The position numbers and the translations under genes are program-made. The notes beneath the pieces are model-generated. The model saw nothing but the letters and a program-made list of their open reading frames with translations, made no database searches and was not told where the DNA came from. Below are positions 1-55,995 of a stretch of DNA of 64,000 bases, in pieces. This DNA is from Candidatus Poribacteria bacterium (lineage in GTDB: Bacteria > Poribacteria > WGA-4E > WGA-3G). The first letter of the stretch is position 1. Every line of letters begins with the position of its first letter. Where the stretch lies: positions 32,001-96,000 of the forward strand of contig OZ219752.1 in assembly GCA_964291315.2 (NCBI GenBank), written 5' to 3'.

Positions 1-979
1 AGCTCTGCACCGAGTGGTTGACATCCGCCCACGATATCTCCCCAGCACTATAGGCATCTCTCAAGCCGCACAACCGCCGCCGTGCACGTCTCACCGAAGA
101 CGGGCGGAGCCGACGATGCGTCGGGAAAACCTGATACCCCAAAAAATCTGTCCCCGCTTTCACCGGAAACACTTGGCACTTGTGCTTATGGAGCTTCAAC
201 CGCAGCTGAGACAGGTAGGCGGCCATCTCCGCTTTTACCCAATGGAGCCGCGCCTTGTCTCTATCAAGCACCACAAAATCGTCTACATAACGGATATAGT
301 AGCGACACTTCAAGTCTTCTTTGACAAAATGGTCGAACCCGTTGAGATGGATATTCGCGAAAAACTGGCTCGTCAAGTTACCGATCGGGATGCCGCGGTT
401 TCTATGGAGCGAGGTCAGCAGATCATCGCCTTCAAAGTATTCACGCACCGGCTCTTGCGGGTTGCTCCGGTCGACAATCAGATCCATCAACGCTAACACT
501 TTTGGGTCCCGGATCTTTCGGCGGAAGCGCGACTTGAGGATGCCGTGGTCAATAGAGGGAAAATACTTCTTGATGTCGCACTTCAGCACATACGTATTCT
601 TACGACTGAACGCAGTGAACCGGTCCACCGCCTTATGCGTTCCCTTGCCCTTTCGGCAGGCATAGGTATCGAAGATGAACGTCCGGTCGAAGAGCGGCTC
701 GATCACATTACACAAGGCGTGATGCACCACCCTATCACGATACGGGGCAGCACTGATCTTGCGAGGTTTCGGCTCGTAGATAGAGAACTCCCGATATTCA
801 CCGGGGCGATACGTCTGTGTTTGCAGCTCCTCTTGGAGCTGATACAGCTCTTTTTCCAAGTGGAAGTTGAAGCGGGCGATGTCCGCCCGAAAACGTTTGC
901 CACGTTGCGCCTTCTGAGCCGCCTCGTAGAGGTTCAGATAAGAGCAGATTTTTTCAAAGAGTCGGTTGTGCGTTTTCAT
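1..979 (-). CDS. DGR-type reverse transcriptase (3' end beyond the window)
   Basis: Manual translation from ATG at 979: [29 protein letters not shown]...[19 protein letters not shown]...[12 protein letters not shown]...[14 protein letters not shown]...[17 protein letters not shown]...[11 protein letters not shown] (YVDD at 278-289)...DFLGY...[14 protein letters not shown]. The frame is open to the window edge and the start overlaps the avd stop (ATGA). Confidence 0.95.
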
Positions 980-1323
980 GATGCAGTAGATTGGCTGCGT
1001 ATCCAGCCTCCTATCAGTTTGCCGACTTCATTGACCTCTTGAGAGATGTAGGCATACTGTTTTGTAGAGAGGAGATTGAAGTCATGAGATAAACGGATGA
1101 GATACCGGAGTTTCTCCAACTGCACGTTGGCTCTCTGAAGTAAATGTAACCGTTTTCGCGTATAGGTGGCTTCGATGAGCACGTCGAGGGTGTCCAAGGC
1201 GAGAGTGATGGTTCTATCGCCGAGGGTGAACTTTTGGGAGCGCGGAAATCTTTCGACGCGTCCGAGGAGCCACATAATCACATCGTAGAGTTTAGGGACG
1301 GCTTGAACTGTGGAAGCTGGCAT
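976..1323 (-). CDS. avd: Accessory variability determinant (Avd/bAvd-like four-helix bundle)
   Basis: 115 aa basic helical protein with [12 protein letters not shown]...[13 protein letters not shown]...EVGKLIGGW, immediately upstream of the RT. Confidence 0.9.
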
Positions 1324-1380
1324 TTTGAGAATCTATTCAATCGGTAATTATCAGTTAAGTAAAGTGTTGGTTTTGGGCCG

Positions 1381-1405
1381 CCCACGCCTGCATAGCAGGC
1401 GTGGG
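1381..1405. other. Perfect hairpin/cruciform downstream of the VR (candidate DGR homing element)
   Basis: CCCACGCCTGC-ATA-GCAGGCGTGGG: 11-bp stem and 3-nt loop, 25 nt after the target stop codon. Confidence 0.8.
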
Positions 1406-1430
1406 GTATAATATGTTAAGTAGTAAAGAC

Positions 1431-2822
1431 TCAGGGCGATACAGACCTCGCACAACGAAAACCGAGGAAGCTGTTCGCGCCCGCCGGCGAATAGCCGTTG
1501 CGGTAGGCGACCCGCACGGACTGAGCCGTAGCGCGCCAGGAGCCGCCACGCTCCACGCGGGATGACTTTATTTGTGTATAGTTATCTAATATCAGGTCTA
1601 CATTGGATAGCGTGTTCACGTCTGACAACGGATTGCGAGAAGGCGAACTAAAATAGTAGTCCTTGTTATACGCATCCAGACACCACTCCCAGACATTCCC
1701 CGCCATATCATACAGACCATACCCATTCGCAGCATACGCACCCACTGCCGTCGTATCATTGACATTTCCGCCGTAGTTCGCCTGTGTGCTGCTAATCGTG
1801 TTTCCCCACGGATACTTTAGCCCCGACTTGCCGCCGCGTGCAGCTTTCTCCCACTCCGCCTCCGTCGGCAGCCGTTTGCCCTTCCATTTCGCATACCCCA
1901 CCGCAGCATACCAACTCACATACACCACGGGATGGTTCGCCTTGCCCGCAGGATAGTTGTTGTCATCATCCCAACGAGATAGGTAGGTTCCATTGTGCAA
2001 GTTGTCCGGAATACGGCTCTTCTGCCACTGCGGGTTCGCCAACACAAAACGCTTGAAGTCCAAATTCGTCACTTCATGCATGTCCATATAAAACGCATCC
2101 ACGTAGACAGTATGAACGGGCTGCTCATCCGTGCCAGATTCCGCATCGTTGCTGCCCATCTGAAACTCACCCGCAGGGATCAATACCATGCCCTCGGGCG
2201 GAGGTGGATCCGGCGGAGTGACAATAGGCACAGTAGTGGTAGTAGGGGTAGTAGTAGGGGGAGGCGTACCATCAGAACCACCACCATTGCCAGCAACAGG
2301 CGGATCCACAACAGTGCCAGTGTCCGGCGCCTCCGGCACTGCAGATACCCAACTAGACGTGATAGTCACTACAGAACGACCCGGATACTTCATAAAACCA
2401 TCCTCGCGAACAAAACCAGCACGAGGACGATTCACATAACTCAAATCAGACAACTTCACAGCCGCACTCAGCTCATCCGAGACTATCATAAACGAACGAA
2501 GCGGATGAATCCAAAAATCAAACGTCAACGTGCCACTCTTCGGTTTTATCGCCTCACCCGAACGCGAGATATGGAAGTAGATGCTGTTATCTGACCACGA
2601 ATAAAACTTACGCGTCTCACCCGGCGACAGACGATAATACCCGCGCGTCCGAAACCCGCTCGGAATGCCCGCCTTCGCAGGCCGCCACGTCGAATGGATC
2701 ACATACAAACTCTCATTGGTCTGATTCGTTACAGGGTTCGCCTTCCATTGCGCCGCTGCTAACTGAGCAACCGAAAACATCAGCACCGCAACAGTTAACA
2801 GAACAAACATTGTCCTTCTCAT
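1431..2822 (-). CDS. Secreted DGR target protein: signal peptide, N-terminal beta domain (DUF1036-like, tentative), Pro/Thr linker, FGE-sulfatase/CLec-fold domain
   Basis: Motifs MVLIPAGEFQMG, HPVVYVSW, RLPTEAEWEKAARGG, NGYGLYDMAGNVWEWC and RGGSW...GFRCAR. Confidence 0.92.
   Translation of the reverse strand: MRRTMFVLLTVAVLMFSVAQLAAAQWKANPVTNQTNESLYVIHSTWRPAKAGIPSGFRTRGYYRLSPGETRKFYSWSDNSIYFHISRSGEAIKPKSGTLTFDFWIHPLRSFMIVSDELSAAVKLSDLSYVNRPRAGFVREDGFMKYPGRSVVTITSSWVSAVPEAPDTGTVVDPPVAGNGGGSDGTPPPTTTPTTTTVPIVTPPDPPPPEGMVLIPAGEFQMGSNDAESGTDEQPVHTVYVDAFYMDMHEVTNLDFKRFVLANPQWQKSRIPDNLHNGTYLSRWDDDNNYPAGKANHPVVYVSWYAAVGYAKWKGKRLPTEAEWEKAARGGKSGLKYPWGNTISSTQANYGGNVNDTTAVGAYAANGYGLYDMAGNVWEWCLDAYNKDYYFSSPSRNPLSDVNTLSNVDLILDNYTQIKSSRVERGGSWRATAQSVRVAYRNGYSPAGANSFLGFRCARSVSP
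1446..1560 (-). other. Putative DGR variable region (VR) and IMH
   Basis: C-terminal RGGSW...GFRC segment whose variable codons (CGC GCT, TCC, TAC, AAC GGC TAT, GGC, AAC AGC TTC) end in C/T, as expected for codons derived from AAC/AAT. Confidence 0.75.
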
Positions 2823-2857: not shown

Positions 2858-2971
2858 GCACAACCTAACAGGGTAGGCTACAAGTAAATCCTTTGTGTGC
2901 TTGTAGCATAGACTGACAGTCTGTGCCTCTTTTTAATATGATACAATGCACAACCTAATAGGTTATGCTAC
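2858..2971. repeat. Three 24-bp GTAG-type REP-like imperfect palindromes
   Basis: 2858-2881 (-), 2903-2926 (+, GTAGCATAGACTGACAGTCTGTGC) and 2948-2971 (-, GTAGCATAACCTATTAGGTTGTGC), spaced 45 bp apart. Confidence 0.7.
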
Positions 2972-2977
2972 AGCTGA

Positions 2978-3541
2978 TTACTTCACTATTAACATTTTAC
3001 GCGTCGCACGGAAAGAACCCGCCTCAAGCGTATAGAAATAGACACCGCTCGAAACCCGCTCGCCCGAATCGTTGCGACCGTCCCAATACACCGACCGAGA
3101 CTTGCTACGGTAAACACCGGGCACCTGATGCCCTAAGCCCAACGTCCGTACCAGGCTGCCATCCGTTGAATAGATGGATACACTGACCTCAGCAGCCTCG
3201 GACAGCTCATACGGAATCCACGTCTCTGGGTTGAACGGGTTCGGGTAGTTCGGCAGCAATGCTGATTGCCGCGGTGCCGCTATGTTTTTCTCAGACAGCA
3301 AACGCGCACTCCTTTCCAATGCGGCTTGTCTGGCGCGCACAACGGCGGGCTCCGATTCGCCCGGTTCAGTCGGCATCGCATCGGGTTCAATGATAAGCCG
3401 CAGGTCTACTTCTACTTGCAGTGTAGCCGAGGGGTTCTCAGCGGGCGATTGTGCCTTGCTCCAGGCGTGCAGGGCGTAGCCGCAGGCGCCGATAGCGAGC
3501 AGGGCAATCATCAGTTTCGGGATTGTCACATACGTTTTCAT
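2978..3541 (-). CDS. Secreted protein with FlgD Ig-like/T9SS-type C-terminal domain
   Basis: LLPNYPNPFNPETWIPY...YWDGRNDSGERVSSGVYFYTL. Start moved to MKTYV (3541), which follows an AAGGAG RBS. Confidence 0.8.
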   Translation of the reverse strand: MKTYVTIPKLMIALLAIGACGYALHAWSKAQSPAENPSATLQVEVDLRLIIEPDAMPTEPGESEPAVVRARQAALERSARLLSEKNIAAPRQSALLPNYPNPFNPETWIPYELSEAAEVSVSIYSTDGSLVRTLGLGHQVPGVYRSKSRSVYWDGRNDSGERVSSGVYFYTLEAGSFRATRKMLIVK

Positions 3542-3751
3542 CGGAAAATACTCCTTTTTTGTATAGGCAGGGATGTTTGTCTGACTCAATTGCGGATGAC
3601 CGCAGATGTCCTGAAGCTCCCTGCCAGTAGCGGCATCAGGACAATACGTTTTGGTGCCCCCGGGTGAGGCGGATATAATCACATCCAACCGACATATCTA
3701 ATACCCGCTACATTCCCACTTGTATGGGCATGTTTTTTTATTCTCTTGGAA

Positions 3752-4297
3752 TCATACTAAAGGCCTTCGAGACCAAAAGCCGTTACGCCCCCGCGTGTCG
3801 ATATGGACATAAGTGGCATAGCGACCAATCCCGCCATTGAATTGAAATTCGCAACCGCCGTTATTTTCACGCTCGTTCAGAGGCATATATGGAACGTTAC
3901 CAGCTGGGACCTCAACTCGAGTGCGATTGCACTCAATAGCGACTGGAGATGTGAACCATTGACCTTGCCATTGTCTTAAAATCTCACATGTTCTTTCCGA
4001 GGAAACTCCCTCGGCGCAAAAGTCGGCAGCAGAAAATGCTTGATGCTGGCTACGGGGACGTCCTTTTTTTAGATGATTGTAAGCTGGAGCTCGGTACACT
4101 GAAGTCAGGTGAATCGGCACATCGAGATCGGCGCGCAGCCGATCCAGAATGAGAATCGTCGGAACAATATTTCCCCACATATTGCGTGGGGGAATTTCAT
4201 TCAGTTCTTCTCCAGTTCCGATTAGCAATTCATTTGCTTGAAAGTGCTGCAGTTCAAGCGTGGCAATAAAGTTATTAAAATCATTAAAATCATTCAT
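3752..4297 (-). CDS. Peptidase M15A family (D-Ala-D-Ala carboxypeptidase/YcbK-like)
   Basis: TSVYR...YN...SQH...AADF and GIGRY...VHIDTRG zinc-ligand motifs. Confidence 0.8.
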   Translation of the reverse strand: MNDFNDFNNFIATLELQHFQANELLIGTGEELNEIPPRNMWGNIVPTILILDRLRADLDVPIHLTSVYRAPAYNHLKKGRPRSQHQAFSAADFCAEGVSSERTCEILRQWQGQWFTSPVAIECNRTRVEVPAGNVPYMPLNERENNGGCEFQFNGGIGRYATYVHIDTRGRNGFWSRRPLV

Positions 4298-4942: not shown

Positions 4943-5524
4943 GTTATAACTCCTTCTAAGTTGTGAGACCAAGGACCTCACTTGTAGCAGTATCGTAATG
5001 TCCTTGTCTTCAGGACCTGCTAAATCTGCGTAAGTCCCATTATTGATATGCTATTCACAGTTTGCATCTTACCTTAGATTTTGTGCATCTACCAGCAATC
5101 AACAAGAACGAGAAGGCTATGTCCAAATCATGCCCGGGATCCGGTAGTACATTATTCATTTCATACTCCTTATTTTTTACGGTTAACGATCACAGTGATT
5201 ATCCCGACGCAACAACAAAAATAGCCTGCAACGTGCAAGGCACGAGCAGGCGCAAAAAAACCACGACAGCAGCAAACGCCGACGCAGCTTGGTGAACAAA
5301 TATATAAACTAAAACACTTAACTTATGTAGATATGGGGGGGGTAAGTGAATGTTAACTCAAAGTTAACATTACAACACAGATCAACGAAACGCACGCAGC
5401 ACACACGTCGCAGAAGAACAACCGACGCGCATCTACTCATGTCCATGTCTATATGAAAGCTTCCCATCGTTCCTACCCCTATATCAAATACCGAAATTAT
5501 TGATAAACCAATTACACAATATTA

Positions 5525-5553
5525 ATTATACACCTATTTCGATGTTCTGTCAA
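5525..5553 (-). promoter_or_regulatory. Consensus sigma70 promoter, copy 1
   Basis: TTGACA-GAACATCGAAATAGGTG-TATAAT, 17-bp spacer. Confidence 0.8.
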
Positions 5554-5561
5554 ATTAATTA

Positions 5562-5590
5562 ATTATACCCCTATTTCAGTCTTTTGTCAA
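5562..5590 (-). promoter_or_regulatory. Consensus sigma70 promoter, copy 2
   Basis: TTGACA-AAAGACTGAAATAGGGG-TATAAT, 17-bp spacer. Confidence 0.8.
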
Positions 5591-5690
5591 CTTTTTTCAA
5601 AATAAATATCAAGTTTGCGTTCCATATGCGTTCCGTATATGATGATTTTCTAGTTTTTAGTTGCTTTATTTTAGCGACTGCCTCTGCCGG

Positions 5691-6098
5691 TTATGGTTGG
5701 ACGATCCGTTGTTGCTTGAGGGTCTCTATATCTGCTGCCAGTGCCTCAATCTGCTTTTCGAAGATACGTTCTTTTCTCATGCGCCACATCATGATCACCT
5801 GTGGCAGCCCTATGACAACCCCTATTATTACCATCAGCCACGTCATCATTTTTTCTATACCACCGATGCGCGCTTCTACACCGTCTATGCGTCCATTTAC
5901 AGCGTCTATGCGTCCATTGAGGGCAGCGACTTGAGTCTTTAGGGTCAAGATGTCGGCTCTTATCGGCTTCAGCTCCGCGTTGAGCTCCTCTTTGATGATC
6001 AACCGGATCTTATTCAGATCAGCATCCGTTAACTCACAGAACACAGGCGAGGCAAGCACAAAAAAGAACACACAGATTACAAATACCTTTTCCATCAC
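5691..6098 (-). CDS. Small coiled-coil membrane protein
   Basis: Signal peptide, heptad repeats NGRIDAV/NGRIDGV/EARIGGI, and one TM segment. Confidence 0.75.
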   Translation of the reverse strand: MMEKVFVICVFFFVLASPVFCELTDADLNKIRLIIKEELNAELKPIRADILTLKTQVAALNGRIDAVNGRIDGVEARIGGIEKMMTWLMVIIGVVIGLPQVIMMWRMRKERIFEKQIEALAADIETLKQQRIVQP

Positions 6099-54720: not shown

Positions 54721-55995
54721 TCAGCGGGATACGGGCTTCACACAACGGAACCCGACGCCAGAGGTCATGTAACCTGGCGACGTACCAGTGTAGCGATAGC
54801 TGACCCGCAATTGTCTTACTTCTGCGCCCCACCCGCCGCCGCGGAAGATGCGCTGAGACACAATATCTGTATAGTTATCTAATAACCACCTGATACTGGG
54901 TGCACCCGATAGAGGGTTATAGGTAGGAGAAACCGAATAGAAGTCGTATATCGCCTCATCCAAACACCATTCAGCGACATTCCCCGCCATATCATACAGA
55001 CGATACCCATTCGCCGCATAACTCCCTACCGGTGTCTTGTAACCGACATTATTGCCGTAGTTCGCACGCGTCCTGTCAATCGTGTCGCCCCAAGGATAAT
55101 CGCGTCCCGATAGTCCGCCGCGGGCGGCATATTCCCACTCCGCCTCGGTAGGGAGTCGCTTGCCTGCCCATCTGGCGTATGCCATCGCACCATACCAACT
55201 CACATAACCAACTGGATGGTCCGCATATCCAGCCTTCACACGATACACACCGTCTACTAACTCAATGACCCCTCTGCCGATATCCAAATAGGTCCTCAAA
55301 TAGGTCTTGCCGGCATCGACATGTTTACCAATGGCATTCAAAAACGCAGCGTATTTGGCATTCGTTACCTCGTGTATATCCATGTAAAATGAATCTACGT
55401 AGACAGTATGGACGGGCTGCTCACCCGGATAAGAATCTGCATCGTTCCTGCCCATCTCAAACTCGCCCGCAGGAATTAATACCATGCCTGCAGGAGCCGA
55501 CAGAGGACCACCCACACGCACCCAAGCTGAAGTGACCGACACTTTAGAACCGCCCGAATGCTTCATAAAACCTGTCTTCTGAACCAACGCCTTCCGAGAA
55601 CCGCTCACATAACTCAAATCAGACGACCTCACAGAGGCACCTATCTTATCAGATGCTATCGTAAACGAATAATACGGATTAACCCAAAAGTCAAACGTAG
55701 ACGTGCTCCTCTCCGGTTTTATCGCTACACCCGAACGCGAGATACGGAAATAGATGCTGTTATCTGACCACGCATAAAACTTTCGCGTTTCACCCGGCAA
55801 CAGACGATAATACCCGCGCGTCCGAAACCCGCTCGGAATATCGTCCTTTGCAGGCCGCCATGTCGAATGAATCACATACAAATGCTTATTTGTCTTGTTG
55901 GTCATAAGGGTCGCTTTCCATTGTGCCTCTGCTAACTGAGCAACTGCAAACATAAGCATGGCAAGAATGGATAGGGCGAATACACTTCTGCGCAT
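54721..55995 (-). CDS. Secreted FGE-sulfatase/CLec-fold protein, paralog of the DGR target
   Basis: Shares LYVIHSTWRPAK...IPSGFRTRGYYRL.PGETRKFY.WSDNSIYF and the FGE-domain motifs with 1431-2822, but lacks the Pro/Thr linker. Confidence 0.9.
   Translation of the reverse strand: MRRSVFALSILAMLMFAVAQLAEAQWKATLMTNKTNKHLYVIHSTWRPAKDDIPSGFRTRGYYRLLPGETRKFYAWSDNSIYFRISRSGVAIKPERSTSTFDFWVNPYYSFTIASDKIGASVRSSDLSYVSGSRKALVQKTGFMKHSGGSKVSVTSAWVRVGGPLSAPAGMVLIPAGEFEMGRNDADSYPGEQPVHTVYVDSFYMDIHEVTNAKYAAFLNAIGKHVDAGKTYLRTYLDIGRGVIELVDGVYRVKAGYADHPVGYVSWYGAMAYARWAGKRLPTEAEWEYAARGGLSGRDYPWGDTIDRTRANYGNNVGYKTPVGSYAANGYRLYDMAGNVAEWCLDEAIYDFYSVSPTYNPLSGAPSIRWLLDNYTDIVSQRIFRGGGWGAEVRQLRVSYRYTGTSPGYMTSGVGFRCVKPVSR

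Follow-up and report, generated by a model that had tools for sequence, protein, structure and literature searches.

The window analysed here is a 64,000-nt stretch of DNA (C3:32001-96000, so that a window coordinate is the C3 coordinate minus 32000) from a four-contig, 4.4-Mb genome, and it opens inside a cassette with the layout of a diversity-generating retroelement (DGR). To our knowledge, DGRs are the only natural system of targeted protein hypermutation known in prokaryotes. Along the minus strand, the window holds a target gene, a GC-rich hairpin, avd and a reverse transcriptase (RT) gene that runs past window base 1, with the avd stop codon overlapping the RT start codon as ATGA (window 976-979). 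A first description made from the sequence alone (the sequence-only reading) had reported this order, the ATGA overlap and the RT motifs GNLTSQ and YVDD, and all of them are present.

That reading had also placed a template repeat (TR) beyond window base 1. A BLAST search of the target's 3' end against the genome returned a gapless 115-nt match 72 nt 3' of the RT stop codon, i.e. 151-265 nt past the window's first base, and because the TR is located just downstream of the RT gene, the predicted order target-avd-RT-TR is correct. The variable region (VR) had been put at window 1446-1560; its actual bounds are 1448-1562, and the TR differs from it almost only at template adenines. The features of the cassette are listed below, negative window coordinates being those before its first base.

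Window 1431-2822 (-): target gene 1 (463 aa), from its open reading frame (ORF) and Pfam FGE-sulfatase
Window 1448-1562 (-): variable region VR1 (115 nt), gapless match to the TR
Window 1381-1405 (-): GC-rich hairpin, from DNA folding
Window 976-1323 (-): avd (115 aa), from NCBIfam NF033474 and Pfam bAvd
Window 1-979 (-): in-window part of the RT gene, 326 of 352 codons, RVT_1 (full gene C3:31921-32979 = window -79..979)
C3:31855-31867 = window -145..-133 (-): upstream strand of the TR-bracketing duplex
C3:31735-31849 = window -265..-151 (-): template repeat TR, from BLAST with the target 3' end
C3:31576-31692 = window -424..-308 (-): Sp-like RNA, comprising stem-loop P1, the downstream duplex strand, and stem-loop P3 with an A-rich tract
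About C3:31524-31569 (-): terminator-like hairpin P4

Reverse transcriptase, template and target

The RT gene is complete in the genome: 26 codons and the stop lie outside the window, and the full 352-aa ORF leaves intact the C-terminus whose disruption the sequence-only reading had considered. Its IGNLTSQ motif is of the IGxxxSQ type, a mark of DGR RTs. In BLASTP, the protein is 39% identical to Brt of Bordetella phage BPP-1 (E 3e-72), and its best match in the PDB is the Bordetella phage bRT (8ub7, E 5e-62), the aligned sequence of which is the brt translation from the BPP-1 record. The avd product reaches 112 bits with the NCBIfam equivalog DivGenRetAVD (cut-off 80) and E 2e-21 with Pfam bAvd; a PDB sequence search with Avd gave nothing at E<=0.01. 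Judged by sequence, the RT appears to belong to the DGR RTs.

TR and VR1 differ at 25 positions, and 23 of these fall on the TR's 33 adenines (of 115 nt; hypergeometric P 2.4e-14). The changes at adenines are distributed over codon positions 1, 2 and 3 as 12, 8 and 3. VR1 encodes target residues 421-458 of 463, and the TR contains ten AAC and two AAT codons; 17 of its codons can vary, none of the 17 can turn into a stop, and approximately 1.3e17 proteins are reachable. At the VR's 3' end, where DGRs have a directional marker (IMH versus IMH*), TR and VR are the same over their last 16 nt and then differ, with distinct VR-type and TR-type 3' flanks that are consistent among VRs.

One alternative is that the RT is of another class (group II intron, retron or Drt/UG) and that the TR-like repeat is a fragment of a pseudogene from the target's C-type lectin (CLec) family. 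The top-scoring NCBIfam model is indeed a group II intron RT/maturase (TIGR04416), PADLOC reports many DRT/UG models, and 56 CLec paralogues could leave fragments. However, the NCBIfam scores are all far under their cut-offs: 146.5 bits for TIGR04416 (cut-off 300), 45.5 for retron St85 (235), 63.3 for Drt3a (200) and 60 for Drt2 (390). The PADLOC models, which have no cut-offs, score under its generic 'RT' model, and Rfam found no group II intron RNA in the 6.5 kb scanned. The RT is also much nearer to bRT than to the best group II RT (2e-22 in the same PDB search), in line with the expectation of the sequence-only reading that it would not group with group II or retron RTs. The bona fide Avd that is translationally coupled to the RT, the adenine-specific mismatches, and an arrangement of RT, TR and structured RNA that is kept in relatives from many phyla all argue the same way, and we give this alternative hardly any credence.

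The target had been described as a signal peptide, a beta domain, a Pro/Thr stalk and a variable CLec tip, and this matches both sequence and structural models:

Window 2751-2822 (-): predicted Sec signal peptide, residues 1-24, a hydrophobic helix ending AAA-QW (helix 2-23 in the model), with a putative cleavage site
Window 2328-2750 (-): N-terminal beta-sandwich module, residues ~25-165 (predicted structure, pLDDT ~80-90)
Window 2211-2327 (-): Pro/Thr/Gly-rich low-complexity linker, residues ~166-204 (sequence; pLDDT 29-37)
Window 1434-2210 (-): FGE-type C-lectin-fold domain, residues 205-463 (model, Foldseek and sequence matches)

Pfam FGE-sulfatase covers residues 210-459 of target 1 (E 4.9e-62). 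In a model of the full-length target, the CLec part had a pLDDT of only ~30, and the domain was therefore remodelled from a cleaner alignment of 28 of the genome's own paralogues, giving a pTM of 0.79. This model matches FGE structures in Foldseek (E 3e-20, TMq 0.73), and the domain's sequence matches FGE at 2e-34 and TvpA (PDB 2y3c), a Treponema DGR target, at 6e-10. FGEs carry a C-x4-C pair that we take to be their catalytic residues, consistent with the PDB titles 'C336S mutant' and 'C341S mutant'. When three bacterial FGEs were aligned with the target, the C-x4-C loop that follows the GGS motif corresponded to a shorter, cysteine-free stretch inside the VR, so the target has an FGE fold without the FGE active site and lacks the cysteine pair expected of a functional FGE. 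TvpA likewise has the fold without the active site, according to the passages of PMC5758913 that concern it.

The N-terminal module has no Pfam match at E<=1, and a fold search gave generic beta-sandwich neighbours, the best (Z 6.5) being under the tool's stated noise level. A protein atlas suggested DUF1036 (0.90), a weak lead that Pfam does not support at E<=1. Few proteins have this module (1.84 billion proteins yielded 111 representative clusters), and it is nearly always placed straight after the signal peptide. The domains that follow it in 35 scanned relatives are FGE-sulfatase domains, LRR arrays, WD40 propellers, Big_1/invasin or dockerin/cohesin domains, and the proteins often end in a FlgD_ig domain. 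We interpret the module as a lineage-specific leader or anchor of secreted proteins that take part in interactions.

The eight closest relatives of the RT (78-83% identity) all come from metagenome-assembled genomes (MAGs) of Candidatus Poribacteria, an uncultured, sponge-associated lineage, which fits the 'Poribacteria-like' host proposed from sequence. The next relative is at 65%, and those at 53-56% identity are from Nitrospinota, Nitrospirae, cyanobacteria and others. Of 14 related loci, 13 have a TR 17-206 nt past the RT and a VR upstream; the 14th locus is cut off upstream. The best TR/VR pair has 88-100% of its mismatches at adenines in 12 of the 13; the figure is 16/18 in L006 and 17/18 in L014.

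RNA elements, hairpin and proposed mechanism

Conservation of the 110-120 nt 3' of the TR spans the Poribacteria loci and the relative whose RT is 65% identical; Rfam gave no match at E<=1 over 6.5 kb that included this region. RNAalifold predicts stems P1-P3 and then the terminator-like hairpin P4, with a U-run after it in most relatives, and its consensus shows double changes in 14 of 46 pairs (nine sequences). A covariance model of P1-P3 (R1) was searched over 83 sources, comprising 80 related loci and three of this genome. It made 26 matches at E<=1, every one on the RT strand: the nine training sequences, 14 new matches at 133-348 nt past the RT stop, and three elsewhere (L005:3569, L023:4465 and L002:9400). 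In the alignment fitted to the model, double changes occur in 27 of 31 pairs, and pairing holds in 92% of cells (36-48% when partners are slid), figures that are inflated by the fit to the model.

Two of the matches elsewhere are in loci of other genomes. L005, from a Poribacteria MAG, has a second strong copy of the Sp-like RNA (L005:3569-3680, 85 bits) approximately 2 kb downstream of the RT, a possible sign of another TR or a remnant cassette in that locus. The match at L023:4465-4573 (27 bits) is the only one upstream of its RT, reflecting either a different cassette order or chance.

The weakest helix of the RNA is P2, and its 3' arm and the bases that follow are complementary to a segment just upstream of the TR, such that a long-range duplex could bracket the TR. 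RNAduplex runs on long flanks were uninformative (z -4.7 to +1.1), so a comparison of cognate and non-cognate pairings between short segments was used instead. The cognate pairing was energetically favoured in all 21 loci (Wilcoxon P 5e-7), which bears out the long-range duplex, and across 12 lineage representatives it averaged -17.5 kcal/mol, versus -9.9 kcal/mol for non-cognate pairings (P 2e-4). For 13 of the 21 loci, no non-cognate partner was equally good. The structured RNA 3' of the TR and this duplex match the published Sp/"cPRT Stop" elements, a layout reported for 207 of 278 Avd-type DGRs (bioRxiv 10.1101/2023.10.23.563531, section 10).

In BPP-1, a hairpin functions at the target site. 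The hairpin in our cassette has an 11-bp, GC-rich stem and a 3-nt loop, starts 28 nt past the target stop codon, and has counterparts approximately 45 nt 3' of the VR in 9 of 13 related loci, with differing stem sequences. It resembles the BPP-1 hairpin (PMC3240598) and is probably a target-recognition hairpin or cruciform.

The cassette thus combines the features by which DGRs are recognised: an RT of the DGR clade, an adenine-biased TR/VR pair, a 3'-terminal VR in a CLec fold, Avd, and RNA elements in cis. Its core of avd, RT and TR with no other accessory gene agrees with architecture B2 as defined in PMC5758913 (Figure 5). We consider it very probable that this is a complete chromosomal DGR of that published avd-RT-TR type in a Poribacteria-like organism.

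On this basis, the operon would be transcribed as target, avd, RT, TR and Sp-like RNA. The RT-Avd complex would bind the structured RNA that brackets the TR, prime on that RNA, and copy the TR to cDNA with misincorporation opposite adenines. The cDNA would replace 115 nt at the 3' end of the target's coding part, re-randomising 17 codons (about 1e17 proteins, no stops) on what would be the ligand-binding face of a secreted FGE-fold C-type lectin domain, borne on a Pro/Thr linker and the N-terminal beta-sandwich module. Target proteins made in this way may bind variable ligands outside the cell, e.g. the surfaces of a sponge host, of phages or of neighbouring cells.

Cassette copies, variable regions and the CLec family

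Using tblastn, we found exactly one further pair of RT and Avd in the genome, at C4:494812-496214 (99.4% and 99.1% identical). It belongs to a second cassette (C4:492578-501466; locus L002 2578-11466) that shares a 3.8-kb, 97%-identical block with the window cassette and has intact RT and Avd genes. At its TR position, however, is a TR::VR chimera: the 5' flank and the first ~77 nt equal the C3 TR, and the rest has 13 changes, all at adenine positions, after which a VR-type 3' flank leads into a 540-aa ORF that encodes FGE-sulfatase domains. Only the 3' half of the Sp-like RNA is left, about 3 kb further on, with an M4 peptidase gene in between. This structure is accounted for by a crossover that joined the TR to the VR of a downstream target, and the C4 cassette would not be expected to template cDNA of its own.

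A third remnant (C3:226476-227532, beyond the window's end; locus L003 4476-5532) keeps a target, its VR, the hairpin and the first 30 nt of avd. The start of avd is joined directly to the 3' part of the Sp-like RNA, the rest of avd, the RT, the TR and the 5' half of Sp having been deleted. Its target is a lipoprotein-type CLec protein with an in-register VR. Because both other copies are damaged, the window cassette is the only complete one of the three.

Five VRs, VR1 included, are in register with the TR, and none mismatches it at more than 3 of the 82 non-adenine positions. The remaining four are listed here together with two further targets downstream of the window cassette:

C3:227107-227221: in-register VR of the third remnant
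C4:494576-494690: in-register VR of the C4 cassette
C4:500489-500603: in-register VR in a 565-aa tandem-domain protein
C4:501335-501449: in-register VR in the same 565-aa tandem-domain protein
C3:30451-31320 (-): target 2
C3:29313-30176 (-): target 3, a tandem duplicate of target 2

The 3' ~520 nt of targets 2 and 3 are identical. Their VRs, along with one at C4:497782-497897, have one extra codon relative to the TR. The TR-Sp RNA of the window cassette may also act in trans on the VRs that remain at the two damaged cassettes and in paralogues nearby, which would give it at least five in-register VRs. There is published precedent for remote targets, for targets with several VRs in tandem, and for incomplete loci supplied in trans (PMC5758913 and PMC10907252).

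The two similar cassettes can be compared region by region. Of the 115 VR positions, 29 differ between them, and 26 of these are TR adenines; outside the VR the target body differs by 2.8%, avd by 1.4% and the RT by 0.8% (Fisher P 7e-22). At least one of the two VRs must therefore have been rewritten since the cassettes stopped sharing sequence. Beyond the 97% block, the flanks (C3:37203-37983, which is window 5203-5983, versus C4:490220-491169) are ~87% identical in patches. With outer flanks only that similar, the 97% block may reflect gene conversion rather than the age of the duplication, which points to a larger and more ancient duplication whose cassette core was converted later.

Several points weigh against reading the window cassette as a complete DGR that is still at work. 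At the 5' edge of VR1, two neighbouring differences from the TR do not involve template adenines. The extra codon in three VRs means that they were not recently overwritten by this TR. RNAalifold's P2 is incompatible with the long-range duplex; part of the RNA model must therefore be wrong, probably the P2 helix. When model R1 was run on the BPP-1 cassette, its Sp was not detected (best E 1.8), so the case for equating the two RNAs is one of position and architecture rather than of sequence homology. The public data consist of assembled contigs from two runs (X1 and X2) of one study, and both candidates for VR variation in them were rejected: six differences from VR1 on one contig all equal a paralogous VR at C4:1233 kb, and apparent TR/VR 'joints' equal the VRs of targets 2 and 3 and of the remnant at C3:227 kb. 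Finally, the two-locus picture and the chimeric TR hinge on the correctness of a four-contig assembly.

Some of these points could mean that the cassette is a frozen relic, i.e. intact-looking and now inactive, with its VRs being fossils of past homing. Such a state would agree with the undemonstrated VR variation in the contigs of the two runs, the non-adenine differences, the uncorrected extra codons, and the decay of both sister cassettes. Against it, neither the RT nor the Avd ORF is truncated, and each is 99% identical between the two copies; the window cassette also retains an undamaged TR, Sp-like stems, post-VR hairpin and both strands of the bracketing duplex. A VR divergence of 25%, compared with 1-3% in the flanks, also indicates homing after the copies last shared sequence. 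We consider a relic quite unlikely and infer that the element may be active today.

The concern about the assembly can be taken further: the extra cassettes and the chimeric TR might be artefacts of collapsed strains or repeat misjoins, leaving a single DGR locus with fewer targets. The organism is uncultured, its CLec repeats are many and similar, and the X1 and X2 contigs are heavily fragmented across the region. However, the three loci have different flanking genes (patatin, the M4 peptidase and seryl-tRNA synthetase at C4; a TRAP transporter and CTP synthase at C3), and the junctions are precise and biologically sensible, being a crossover inside the TR and a clean 1.7-kb deletion. Artefacts of this kind are unlikely in our view, and they would leave the claim of a complete DGR in the window untouched.

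The genome contains 56 uninterrupted copies of the CLec/FGE domain, several of them in tandem arrays; examples include a copy at window 54727-55494 (-) and seven in tandem at C4:2727627-2733279. Across an alignment of 28 copies (identity to target 1, 53-89%), the 17 positions whose template codons have A in first or second place show a mean column entropy of 2.66 bits, compared with 0.53 bits at the other 21 VR positions (P 7e-7) and 0.92 bits in the rest of the domain (P 2e-10). This variability at adenine-encoded positions extends to paralogues that are only 53-63% identical. The CLec family as a whole therefore bears a DGR-like imprint, the source of which could be this DGR, lost templates or selection.

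A broader and much more tentative proposal, which we regard as somewhat doubtful, is that one master TR-Sp RNA, that of the window cassette, maintains a genome-wide repertoire of secreted C-lectin receptors in a sponge symbiont. The cassette would have been copied at least three times with its target, copies would have lost their templates (by TR x VR crossover or clean deletion) and become clients, and the 56-domain family would be the product of this cycle of copying, diversification and decay. If true, a DGR would be an engine of gene-family expansion for host or phage recognition, beyond a diversifier of a single gene.

Known systems and genomic neighbourhood

The closest published counterparts are the architecture B2 DGRs with FGE-sulfatase/CLec1 targets (Wu et al. 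2018, PMC5758913). As presented in the parts of that paper devoted to them, they share with our cassette an avd-RT-TR core on one strand, an upstream target with a C-terminal VR in an FGE-sulfatase domain, extra targets both adjacent and remote (>100 kb), tandem multi-domain targets with multiple VRs, and no phage association. What differs here is the Poribacteria-like host, the unnamed N-terminal beta-sandwich module, and the presence of three variously decayed cassettes with one intact TR.

The Treponema denticola DGR is alike in that TvpA (2y3c) has an FGE-subtype C-lectin fold, a C-terminal VR and an inferred surface or secreted binding role, and in that one TR serves many non-adjacent targets (in the T. 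denticola passages of PMC5758913). The same passages give it architecture C and an HRDC accessory gene instead of Avd, and sequence similarity to TvpA is low. The BPP-1 DGR is alike in its RT and in having Avd, but its order is mtd-avd-TR-brt; here, the TR follows the RT, so the Sp-like RNA ends the transcript rather than preceding the RT. BPP-1's DGR is phage-borne with an Mtd-type CLec target, whereas this element is chromosomal and its target has an FGE-type fold. Finally, Thiohalocapsa PB-PSB1 (PMC10907252) also has complete and incomplete DGR loci in one genome, remote and multi-VR targets, and proposed service in trans. Its diversification was measured in metagenomes; in the Poribacteria-like genome, the routes of decay (TR::VR crossover and clean avd-RT-TR deletion) are readable in the sequence.

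Full-text literature searches found no published description of DGRs in Poribacteria, though supplements of large surveys may list some; a paper that mentions both deals with cold-seep viruses. The architecture and the target class are already published, and the decay series and the Sp-type RNA are useful details rather than new biology. The analysis adds a complete, readable DGR case in Poribacteria, shows DGR cassettes decaying within one genome while targets keep register with the surviving template, and gives a covariance-supported Sp-type RNA for the avd-RT-TR clade that is absent from Rfam. The large family of secreted lectin-fold proteins offers candidates for symbiont-host or symbiont-phage recognition. 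Practical value is modest.

The statement in the sequence-only reading that no phage genes are nearby held for the ORFs scanned on both sides: there were none among 11 ORFs (~12 kb before the cassette and the first 6 kb of the window) or among 15 ORFs at window 7.5-25 kb. Housekeeping genes flank the cassette on both sides, and DNA polymerase I and UbiD are also among the neighbours. The sole phage-like match near the cassette is an isolated Peptidase_M15_3 protein (181 aa, window 3752-4297, minus strand), from a family that is also frequent among phage endolysins.

A scan for promoters and terminators gave a site count no higher than in shuffled sequences. A ~26-nt motif (…CACAACCTAA.AGG.TA.GCTACAG…) occurs twice upstream of the target 1 start (window 2858-2884 and 2948-2973) and recurs upstream of targets 2 and 3 (C3 about 31400 and 30260), on the coding strand, as the reverse complement. 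It is possibly a shared regulatory or repeat element.

Directly upstream of target 1 is a gene for a 236-aa secreted protein (window 2978-3688, minus strand) with C-terminal matches to FlgD_ig, Por_Secre_tail and CHU_C-type sorting domains. Approximately 590 nt of the gene's 3' part fall within the 3.8-kb duplicated block, and the protein's C-terminal domain also closes many of the proteins that bear the target's N-terminal module.

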